Position numbers: made by a program. A DNA stretch of 9,456 bases from a virus (lineage: Duplodnaviria > Heunggongvirae > Uroviricota > Caudoviricetes). Shown here one piece after another: positions 3,001 through 6,000 of the stretch. Every line of letters begins with the position of its first letter. Position 1 is the stretch's first letter. The DNA is taken from positions 1 through 9,456 of IMG/VR virus record IMGVR_UViG_2675903324_000008. One strand, given 5' to 3'.

Positions 3001-6000
3001 TACCTCCTGACGAATACGGGCGGCAAATACAGCAACACAACCGGACGGGCAACGGTTACGCGCTTCGCGTTCCGTCCAGGCGGTTACGTGGATGATTTGA
3101 CGGTCTGACGCGCCGACGGCAATAAAGCGCCACACAAAGGCCGTTTGTGTGTGTGCTAGTCGTGGAGTATGATTTACGGCAACCATAACGGCTCCTCGTT
3201 TACGTTGTTGGTTAGAAGCCCCGTTACTGCTCCAACAGTGCGGGGCTTCGTCGTTTCAATTGCTGAATTGCATGTATCAGCTCTTGTGGTATTCAGATTA
3301 CATTTAAGTGAATACCATTTCAAGCTTTTTTGGGTATTCACTTTTGTGTTACACTGCATCCCGCTATTAATCGGAGGTGCAAACATGTCCACGAGTTCTG
3401 TTAACAATAAGTCACAGCAACTGAATGCCAGATTTCCACATGAAGTAGTGAGTGGCATTGAGGCATCCCTACAGCCAGGGGAAACTAAAGCGAATTTTAT
3501 AGTTACAGCAGTACGCGGTGAGATCGCCCGCCGCCAAGCAGAAGGAAGAGGAGAAAACCCCCTGGTTTCTTCGCTCGATGCACTGGCGCAGGTGGAAAAA
3601 ATCGGAGTCAAAGCAGCCGAGGAGATCGGGCAACTCGTCACCATCGCGCGTGAAGAACTCCAGCGTCGCAAGACCCAAGAATCAGAATAATAACTATCAG
3701 CGCCGTGGCGTGAGGAACTCCGGCGCATTGCTTTACAGGGCAGTATCATGACCAACAACACACTATCACCAATACAAGACACGCAAACGCAAGATGATGA
3801 AATCATCCGGCAAAGGCAGTCAGAAGCCTGCGCCAGAGTTGAGGAAGAACTAACCAGAACAAAAATACCACCACCAGCGCCGCGCTTAGTGCCACCAGAA
3901 AAATTTGCCCTTGAAGATTTTGTCGATAAATACCCACGGCGGTTAAAAGCCACTAAAAACCGACCGCCTGGCTGATAGCCTTGTCCACCAGCCGTAAATG
4001 TGGCATTGTCGGCGATGCTCATGCGTTGGGGATAACGCGAAATTTGTGTCGAAGGGCCACCGTGACAGGTGGCCTTTTCTTTGCCTGTTATCCGGCAATT
4101 GTGGCGCTTCTTCACACAGTTGATATAATTCCCCTGCACTGATCCAATTTTTTCGCAGCAGGTTAATTGTTCGCAAGGGCGCTCCGGCAACGGGGCGCTT
4201 TTTGTTTTTACCCACCAGCACAATAAAAATCTTCATTTTCCATTTTTGTAAAATTTCATGCTTTCCGGACGACGGGCCATATGTCATTTTTTAGCAGAAG
4301 ATTTTGCCTTGCTGGTGGGTAGCTTCTCGGTTAACACGATGTACCGTATAATCAGCACCGCGTGTGGTTACTGAATACGCTCACCAAAGTAAAACTCAGG
4401 CTGATATTCACGTATCAGCCTTTTTTCTTCTTCCTCCAGTTCACGTTTTTTGCGCTTACATGCCTGTAGCGCCCTCCCCTTCTCGCTGGCACTTATCTGA
4501 TATTGCTCTTTACGGCGGGAAAAATCCTGTAATGCACCCCACGGGATACCATAAGCCCCCGTTTTTCTGATACCCGGTATCACATTTCTGAATACCCAGT
4601 TACTGAAACGATGGGCGAATGTGCCTTGCGTCGTTGCTTTGCGGCTACGGGCTATTAGTTTGTAGAAACCTGACTCAGAGATAATGCTCATATTCTGATT
4701 TCCTCCTGGGGTGTAAGTTAAATTTACTCCCTTTTCATCATCATCAAGCATCTGCAACGCCGTACGCGAATTGGTCAGTTCCAGCGCAGCGCAGACATCC
4801 TTTGCAACAAACCACGGATCGCCGTTCAGATACACCACGCGAACGTTCACACTATCAAAGCGCAGAACGACCAGATCACGAAAATCACAGAATTTTTTTA
4901 CATGACGTGCGTCACCCTTGCCCGTCACGGCAATATTTTTATTCATTTCTTTTTTACCTCACATACAAAAAACCCCGCATTGCACGCGGGGTATGAAAGA
5001 TATTATTAGTGGGGATTGGCTTGTTCTCGTTGTTTATCTAACCATGCTTCTACATCTCTACGGTGCCAGGTATGTCGTCGTCCAATTCTGAACGGCTGAG
5101 GAAAACCATTATTCTCATCTTTCCAGAAATTGATGAATGCACTCATTGCTCCATATCGCAAGATTTTCATTACGTCTTTAGTAAATAAAATATCTTCATT
5201 GGTATTCATTTGCTGAACCTCCTCAACCATTTACTACTCTTAAACCTTTCATACCACCGGATCTATTAATTACCCCTTTTCTCGCATCATCAAAAAAATC
5301 ACCGACCCATTGCATCATGATCTTACGCTGTTCTAGATAAGTAGTTCTATTATAAACATCTCTTATTTTATCACCACTTTTATGCGCCAATGCAGCCTCG
5401 ATTACATCGGGGTTAAATCCCTCCTCATTTAAAAGCGTACTCCACATTGAACGAAAACCATGTAACGTTACAATCCCTTTGAACTTGCTGGCAGCAATTG
5501 GGGTCTTGATAGTATTCCTCCCCATAGGCGCATCTTTTGTTCTGGAGGAAAAAAACACATAACGCCCTCTTTTTATTTCCTGCATTGTTCTGAGGATACT
5601 AATAGCCTGTGATGACAAGGGAACAACATGTTCACGATGGCATTTCATTTTATGCGCGGGGATAATCCACAAGCCAGAATCAAAATCAATCTCTGACCAC
5701 TCTGCTTTAATTGCCTCACCTGGCCTGACCATTGTCAATATCTGGAATAAAAGTGCATTATGAGCTATTTGATAGGTATGAGGCACACTATCCCACCAGC
5801 TCAGAAATTCAGGCAATCTTTCAACAGGTAGTGCTGCTAATGATTTATTTTTCTTTCCTGTGAATGCAGTCTTTATCTTAAGTAATGGATTTGTTTTCAA
5901 TGTTCCACAATTTACAGCATAATTCATAATTTCATTTAATCTTGATATTAATTTTTTTTGCAACGCATTCTTATCGGATACGGCATCCAGAGCATTAATA

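Follow-up and report, generated by a model that had tools for sequence, protein, structure and literature searches.

The DNA analyzed here, a stretch of 9,456 nucleotides (positions 1 to 9,456 of IMG/VR virus record IMGVR_UViG_2675903324_000008; hereafter the window), carries a satellite element whose segment 3950-4400 was 100% identical to several Escherichia coli chromosomes. Annotation of the identical loci gave the gene order integrase, a helix-turn-helix (HTH) gene in the position of AlpA, a Bro-N gene, an Icd-like gene, and small genes leading into a primase or helicase. The integrase has lysis genes and a truncated gene for the large terminase subunit as its neighbors, which indicates that a late gene of a lambdoid prophage harbors the island. 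Because this gene layout and the terminase/lysis neighbors match the helper-embedded configuration described previously (PMC10111431), the element belongs to the Gram-negative phage-inducible chromosomal islands (PICIs), specifically to the helper-embedded type of these satellites, and is not P4. Within it, about 283 bp separate the terminator (T1) of a rightward operon from the bro stop codon (4368), in agreement with the 280-bp gap given in a preliminary description of this DNA. That gap holds, on the plus strand, the perfect extended -10 element TGATATAAT that the description had placed at 4121-4129 and, 49 nt beyond the end of the -10, the GC-rich 8-bp stem (4179-4198) with GCAA loop and U-tract that it had put about 50 nt downstream; a terminator scanner extended this stem to 12 pairs (T2). 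Comparison with relatives makes it likely that the unit is a real small RNA (sRNA) gene, independently transcribed.

Taken alone, the -10 element is statistically unremarkable. The motif TGNTATAAT occurred once in the window versus 0.28 expected occurrences, and at least once in 49 of 200 shuffles; the sole -35-like hexamer (TTGTGG, 4099-4104) is weak and has a 19-bp spacer. The significance of the promoter/terminator unit thus comes from the comparison with relatives and not from the motifs by themselves. IMG/VR was scanned with a pattern in which only the blocks 4094-4109 and 4160-4172 were fixed; this returned 75 loci, which were pooled with E. coli loci into 48 distinct 239-nt sequences. 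The 9-mer TGATATAAT was invariant in all 48, while 25 of the 49 neighboring columns left free by the search pattern varied, including those on either side of the 9-mer. Positions 4122, 4125, and 4128 are synonymous third-codon sites of an open frame on the minus strand and never change, whereas nonsynonymous sites adjoining the -10 do vary; such a pattern points to constraint on a DNA motif, not on a protein. On this comparative evidence, the predicted promoter is under selection.

The variants of T2 likewise argue that it is constrained as a plus-strand terminator. In its core stem, GCGCTCCG (4179-4186) pairs with CGGGGCGC (4191-4198). Each of the 18 terminator-segment variants seen in the sRNA unit folds (-13.9 to -21.2 kcal/mol), and so does each of the 14 distinct hairpin cores, whose mean ΔG is -16.0 kcal/mol on the plus strand versus -9.6 kcal/mol on the minus strand; every hairpin variant has two to four G.U pairs on the plus strand that would be A.C mismatches on the minus strand. 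The changes consist of compensatory replacement of C-G by A-U, replacement of C-G by U-G, and matched insertions that shift the register. In the model-fitted alignment 90% of cells were paired, a value reached by none of 500 shuffles and itself an undercount, as the covariance-model alignment leaves the second hairpin type out of register; for that reason each variant was refolded individually. The GNRA loop emphasized in the preliminary description is present here as GCAA, but the loop class is not conserved, with other variants having 5-nt loops such as UUAUC, AUAUC, and AUUUC.

The RNA predicted from these signals has a variable first 25 nt, then a conserved U-run, a conserved block GCAGCAGGUUAAUUGUUC, and the terminator, such that its last ~50 nt are conserved. 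The 75-nt RNA has a folding energy of -23.9 kcal/mol, only a modest gain over shuffled sequences (z = -2.2). The terminator helix was the sole helix predicted by RNAalifold, and the first ~38 nt are therefore predicted to be single stranded. A covariance model of the unit scored 79 to 104 bits in 35 sources; the score was lower in HUSEC2011 (56 bits) and in Sakai (39.5 bits). As for coding capacity, the three plus-strand frames were open in 0, 2, and 0 of 46 variants, i.e., there is no coding frame on the transcribed strand. The earlier statement that no plausible open reading frame (ORF) intervenes therefore holds for the plus strand but not for the minus strand, where ORFs of 349 and 114 codons cross the unit. 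The small regulatory or antisense RNA of about 70 nt that had been proposed is well supported by the comparison with relatives.

The edges of the conserved module tell a similar story. Of the 5,426 complete E. coli genomes searched by BLAST with 4040-4370, 438 matched; homology stops at 4206-4210, the end of the U-tract, in most of the 438, and about one third share only 4154-4209. At least five unrelated right flanks start directly after the T2 U-tract. On the other side, one locus (L017) has an unrelated left flank from ~27 nt upstream of the -10, without T1, and yet keeps the sRNA unit. In HUSEC2011, only the 3' half is homologous, and a nonhomologous promoter (TTCACT-17-TATAAT, 10 of 12 matches) lies at the same distance from T2, also downstream of a T1-like terminator, so that the architecture of T1, promoter, ~50 nt, and T2 recurs. 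Prophage Sp7 of strain Sakai has a weaker promoter-like sequence (TTGCCC-17-TATCAT) at the equivalent place. The module boundaries thus coincide with those of the predicted transcription unit. Among the carriers is the model island EcCICFT073, which has the unit at 87% identity, at complement(1380008..1380081) of NC_004431.1 in CFT073, and was recognized via c1499 and c1500, its capsid and decoration genes (PMC6092414). Other carrier strains include O157:H7 F6321-like strains and RM10466.

On the minus strand, a long stop-free frame runs antisense through T2, the sRNA, T1, and both genes of the rightward operon, ending 10 nt after the ATG of the Icd-like gene. Its openness was evaluated over 65 distinct related intervals between the sRNA 3' end and the Icd-like start (median, 885 nt). 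One island-sense frame was stop-free in 53 of the 65 intervals (41 of 48 clusters at 95% identity); the median number of stops was 17 for the two remaining island-sense frames and 12 for the sRNA-sense frames. The Icd-like coding region is in frame with, and ends, the long frame in 55 of 73 loci, including EcCICFT073; a further 8, this window among them, have the long frame terminating no more than 40 nt from the start of the Icd-like gene. Across the loci compared (L001-L084), the frame reaches up to 819 codons. Where it crosses the sRNA module, it is open in 45 of 46 variants, which encode 32 distinct peptides, and its ratio of nonsynonymous to synonymous polymorphism (pN/pS) is 1.24, versus 0.10 for bro and 0.35 for the Icd-like gene; no Pfam or NCBIfam match to the long frame was found. 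A frame that stays free of stops across relatives without amino acid constraint is selected to remain open and not for its product. Over the YlcI/YnfO-family gene of the rightward operon, the two pN/pS values (0.20 versus 0.18) leave the coding strand undecidable, as both frames share wobble positions. Annotation of the frame is inconsistent, appearing as ECs_1576, WP_264831704.1, "hypothetical protein," or an "Icd-like" pseudogene. The last of these labels, given by the NCBI annotation pipeline (PGAP) over the sRNA unit, is unsupported by the Icd-like hidden Markov model and is explained by homology to long-frame proteins that have an Icd-like C terminus.

The N terminus of the PICI long frame is mosaic among types of alpA junction. 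In three independent junction types, the frame has an ATG directly after the alpA stop, with GAGG or GGGGGAG as Shine-Dalgarno (SD) sequence and a distance of 6 nt to the complement of the sRNA 3' end; in the type of this window, a TTG start lies 15 nt from that complement; and in three junction types the frame's ATG is 87 nt upstream. In EcCICFT073 and in loci L020 and L021, a Bro-N domain broken off after ...SESGFYKLI is fused in frame to KTKSAPLPER of the module, the fusion falling exactly at the T2 U-tract (L003 8180-8300, minus strand; L020/L021); the edge of the terminator thus serves the domain-swapping Bro network as a junction for recombination. A complementarity search within the island returned the cis antisense site as the sole strong match of the sRNA; the search for complementarity suggested in the preliminary description thus yielded the cis site alone, with the remainder of the window and EcCICFT073 at chance level. 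That description had also set a conserved protein-coding segment in relatives against an RNA gene. A conserved open frame is indeed present on the minus strand, but its substitution pattern reflects constraint at the nucleotide or RNA level and not at the amino acid level, so that the frame is likely the target of the RNA and not a refutation of it.

The coordinates of the unit and its neighbors are collected in Table 1.

Table 1. Features of the sRNA unit, the overlapping minus-strand frames, and neighboring genes in the window
Feature	Coordinates	Strand	Basis or remarks
sRNA promoter region	4094-4129	+	Conserved upstream block GGCAATTGTGGCGCTT (4094-4109) and extended -10 TGATATAAT (4121-4129)
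Predicted sRNA	4136-4209	+	~70-74 nt; start inferred at invariant G4136, 7 nt after the -10; 3' end inferred
Intrinsic terminator T2	4175-4209	+	Stem 4175-4186/4191-4202 (12 pairs, scanner); loop GCAA 4187-4190; U-tract 4199-4209 (T5-G-T5)
Long stop-free frame	3174-4223	-	349 codons; TTG start; stop TAA 3176-3174; resembles P4 eta; proposed cis target
114-codon ORF	3943-4287	-	ORF list; spans the sRNA unit
Terminator T1 of rightward RHH operon	4054-4082	+	GGCCACC-GTGACA-GGTGGCC, then TTTTCTTT
YlcI/YnfO-family gene	3385-3690	+	NCBIfam YlcI_YnfO_N, E = 1.3e-16; PGAP; rightward operon upstream of the sRNA
75-amino-acid ORF	3748-3975	+	PGAP; second ORF of the rightward operon
Icd-like (P4 Kil-like) gene	2992-3186	-	NCBIfam phage_ICD_like, E = 4.8e-18; first gene of the leftward replication operon
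bro	4368-4946	-	Pfam Bro-N, E = 4.9e-20
AlpA-position HTH gene	5006-5230	-	Pfam HTH_17, weak; PGAP annotation of identical locus
Integrase	5223-6461	-	PGAP annotation of identical locus
Truncated terminase large-subunit gene	6623-7630	-	Adjoins the island integrase; DUF1441 gene and lysis genes within 6499-9456

The upstream island genes (bro, the AlpA-position HTH gene, and the integrase) are convergent with the sRNA unit. Between the AlpA-position gene and bro, a strong intrinsic terminator in the island sense (4972-4992, minus strand) consists of ACCCCGCGTGCAATGCGGGGT followed by TTTTTTG; it would fit a role of AlpA as an antiterminator, as in Pseudomonas, where AlpA has been shown to act in this way (PMC7969949). 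A further terminator-like hairpin, in the last 20 codons of bro (4398-4421), scores on both strands; it has a clean T-run on the plus strand, where it would be the third terminator in series after T1 and T2. T1 itself has compensatory variants in relatives (GGCGACC/GGTCGCC and TGCGACC/GGTCGCA), and its comparison with Rfam gave terminator-like partial matches only. The product of the YlcI/YnfO-family gene, which has weak Pfam matches of the ribbon-helix-helix (RHH) type, is probably an RHH protein; other lineages have an unrelated HicB/Arc-like small gene in its place. In the divergent region between this gene and the Icd-like gene (~3270-3340), a palindrome (GGTATTCA-N13-TGAATACC) and another copy of GGGTATTCAC were discerned by eye; they look like operators for the RHH protein and overlap a good minus-strand promoter (TTGAAA-17-TAATCT). 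Immediately 5' of the Icd-like start, the leader contains a GC-rich hairpin (GAAGCCCCGCACTGTTGGAGCAGTAACGGGGCTTC; 3215-3250, minus strand) with subthreshold Rfam matches to sar and RsaJ, and a hairpin also occupies the corresponding position in the Sakai island.

No known RNA family accounts for the unit. Rfam returned no match at the gathering score for the whole window, so that the covariance-model check proposed earlier for the candidate region matched no family, and permissive searches of 3900-4450 (to E = 10) and 2800-3950 returned generic terminator-like partial matches only. The C4 (RF01695) and isrK (RF01394) RNAs of the P4 type had no match at the gathering score in the window and none to E = 10 in 3900-4450, although the same search detected both in P4 itself (74.9 and 60.8 bits); the P4 framing of the preliminary description was accordingly abandoned in favor of a PICI. 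P22 sar (RF00262) was without a match in 3900-4450 and gave only 16.8 bits, versus a cutoff of 43, at 3215-3250 on the minus strand. The int-alpA RNA (RF02996) likewise had no gathering-score match in the window; it was found (44.2 bits) in the HUSEC2011 island at L004 8157-8224 (minus strand), between int and alpA, and is hence a different element from the candidate sRNA. A type I toxin-antitoxin antisense RNA was rejected, the opposite frame being a hydrophilic ORF of 300 to 800 codons with no small hydrophobic toxin. Other sRNAs considered lie elsewhere: Esr41 on SpLE1, the Pas sRNAs in lambdoid late regions, and EcOnc22 and EcOnc33 of O157 Sakai in Sp15 tail genes and at the Sp6 moron site; none is listed for Sakai Sp7. 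A full-text literature search with sequence strings of the unit and its hairpin gave nothing relevant, and no paper in the literature searched describes the unit.

Several described systems nevertheless resemble it in part. P22 sar is a cis-antisense RNA of about 69 nt with its own promoter in the immI region; it pairs around a translation start and converges on an operon encoding RHH repressors and an antirepressor of the Bro/Ant network. The candidate is alike in being a short cis-antisense RNA with its own promoter that converges on an operon of the RHH/Bro-Ant network, with proposed pairing around a translation start. It differs in lacking sequence or covariance-model similarity and in having a long bridging frame, not ant, as its target. 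The OOP RNA of lambda is constitutive, about 77 nt long, and made from a promoter and an intrinsic terminator; its pairing partner is the 3' end of cII, and RNase III mediates its action. Here the likeness lies in a short, self-terminated RNA antisense to a convergently transcribed regulatory gene. AgvB and AsxR, prophage anti-sRNAs with a conserved 3' part and a variable 5' part (PMC4104026), are also short, encoded on mobile elements, and ended by an intrinsic terminator; unlike the candidate, for which no trans target was found in the window or EcCICFT073, they are encoded at the lambdoid PR' moron site, with core sRNAs as their trans targets.

In terms of context, the closest counterpart is P4, in which translation of eta prevents termination and a small RNA gene lies inside the eta frame in a regulatory "Bro zone" (PMC10111431). 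In both P4 and the PICIs, a long frame that begins beside the alpA/vis homologue has an Icd-like (Kil) domain at its end and is followed by the primase operon, and in both a small RNA gene is found within that frame in the "Bro zone." The C terminus of the P4 ORF at 8168-8812 (eta) is the Icd-like domain (kil; E = 1.4e-20), as is that of the 427-amino-acid frame of EcCICFT073 (3e-18). In this window, unlike in P4 eta/kil, the Icd-like gene is out of frame with the long ORF. The P4 CI/seqA RNAs are on eta's strand and processed from the operon transcript, whereas the candidate reads against the frame and has a promoter and a terminator of its own. Some relatives that carry the unit (L009 97-282, L013 9391-9576, and L017 4979-5164) have P4-type isrK (seqA-like) and C4 (CI-like) RNAs in sense orientation in the same frame; the window and EcCICFT073 have neither. 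By these analogies, the unit in function most resembles P22 sar and lambda OOP, and in context P4 eta/kil/CI with the RNA on the other strand.

The best-supported model, as the sole strong complementarity in the island is the sRNA's own antisense site, is a constitutive cis-antisense sRNA that may gate both translation of, and read-through across, the long minus-strand frame; we favor it tentatively, as one possibility among those weighed below. The extended -10 would constitutively start transcription near G4136, and T2 would release a ~72-nt RNA with full complementarity to the 5' portion of the frame that bridges alpA (and bro) to the Icd-like gene and the replication operon. In the quiescent island, the sRNA would pair with the few transcripts that read through from the alpA promoter. 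Such a duplex, at the start codon of the frame or shortly beyond it, would block translation or trigger cleavage, and the untranslated RNA, exposed to Rho-dependent termination, would leave the replication operon off. The adjacent RHH protein would probably repress the proximal Icd promoter, and the YlcI/YnfO-family gene may thus be the protein half of the sRNA switch. Once a helper phage induced alpA, strong convergent transcription would out-titrate the sRNA or interfere with its promoter, after which the frame would be translated and transcription would run through to the replication genes.

An alternative use of the same RNA would be in trans, as a chaperone-dependent (Hfq or ProQ) sRNA whose variable 5' seed acts on mRNAs or sRNAs of the host or helper phage, the antisense position being incidental. 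The division into a variable first ~25 nt and a conserved last ~50 nt, as in AgvB and AsxR (PMC4104026), would suit such a role, as would the internal U-run, the A/U-rich stretch before the terminator, the U-rich tail, and the 38 nt at the 5' end that are predicted to be single stranded. Yet complementarity to the window and EcCICFT073 was at chance in an exact-complement search (4 stretches of at least 9 nt versus 3.8 expected), a duplex-energy scan of the window was uninformative in that shuffled queries scored better, and a variable 5' end is neutral in a cis-antisense pair and needs no special explanation; we regard the trans reading as unlikely. It is also conceivable that the RNA product has no function and that the strong convergent promoter and the tandem terminators (T1, T2, and 4398-4421) insulate int, alpA, and bro from the rightward operon and, by transcriptional interference, obstruct alpA-derived polymerases. 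Three plus-strand terminators do stand in series before bro, the promoter faces alpA-driven transcription, and promoter and terminator are the best-conserved parts of the unit. A block internal to the transcript, GCAGCAGGTTAATTGTTC, is conserved too, however, even in lineages with other promoters, and insulation alone would make a promoter between two terminators unnecessary, which renders this explanation quite improbable. The possibility that the conservation reflects minus-strand protein coding only, as the PGAP and Sakai annotations imply, with promoter and terminator motifs arising by accident, draws on the near-universal openness of the frame in the module variants (45 of 46) and on its annotation as ECs_1576, WP_264831704.1, or an "Icd-like" pseudogene. 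Against it stand the module pN/pS of 1.24 next to 0.10 for bro and 0.35 for the Icd-like gene, the 32 distinct peptides among 46 sequences, the invariance of synonymous sites in the -10 while neighboring nonsynonymous sites vary, hairpin changes that preserve pairing on the plus strand only, and the absence of any Pfam or NCBIfam match to the frame; we consider it very improbable indeed.

Several observations also weigh against cis-antisense gating of the frame. In the Bro-N-fused types, including EcCICFT073, the sRNA lies 243 to 294 nt inside the frame, so that a simple block of initiation is not a universal mode. In this window, the only start of the frame is a TTG with a poor SD sequence, out of frame with the Icd-like gene. 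Since some carriers of the unit also have C4 and isrK RNAs, the antisense unit is not the sole possible immunity device. The sRNA list from Hfq cross-linking in O157 Sakai (Hfq-CRAC) contains nothing in the Sakai PICI, an island without this promoter. Finally, the distribution is narrow: pattern scans found the unit in none of 50,697 phage genomes and in no GTDB species representative, and a looser GTDB scan gave a single match, in a metagenome-assembled genome of the Burkholderiaceae (L090), where about one is expected by chance. The unit appears confined to E. coli islands.

Cis-antisense sRNAs of mobile elements are a known kind of regulator; what is new here is an unusual, previously undescribed antisense cassette in an eta-like bridging frame. 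Should the sRNA prove an ordinary antisense RNA of small effect, the finding would add modestly to the sRNAs of mobile elements. The arrangement, in which a repressor-like gene, two terminators, and an sRNA gene overlap in antisense a frame that is open yet unconstrained, has wider interest for annotation and for the coupling of transcription and translation. A broader proposal, which we offer as doubtful though worth stating, is that Gram-negative PICIs carry a hidden antisense control cassette (RHH gene plus sRNA) inside a frame translated only to keep polymerase moving from alpA into the replication genes, with the sRNA gating this bridge and conferring lineage specificity. If true, this would be a clear case of a frame selected for openness, not for protein, and fully overlapped by functional genes on the opposite strand. 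Gram-negative PICIs are transcribed unidirectionally, and their global repressor is unclear (PMC6092414); how they stay silent and switch on is an acknowledged gap, which a regulator at this position would fill. The question is made directly testable by the position of the unit between alpA and the replication operon, by its presence in EcCICFT073, a genetically tractable island, and by the fact that two substitutions, both silent in the overlapping frame, can inactivate it. The sRNA unit is thus a testable candidate for the still-missing switch of PICI repression.

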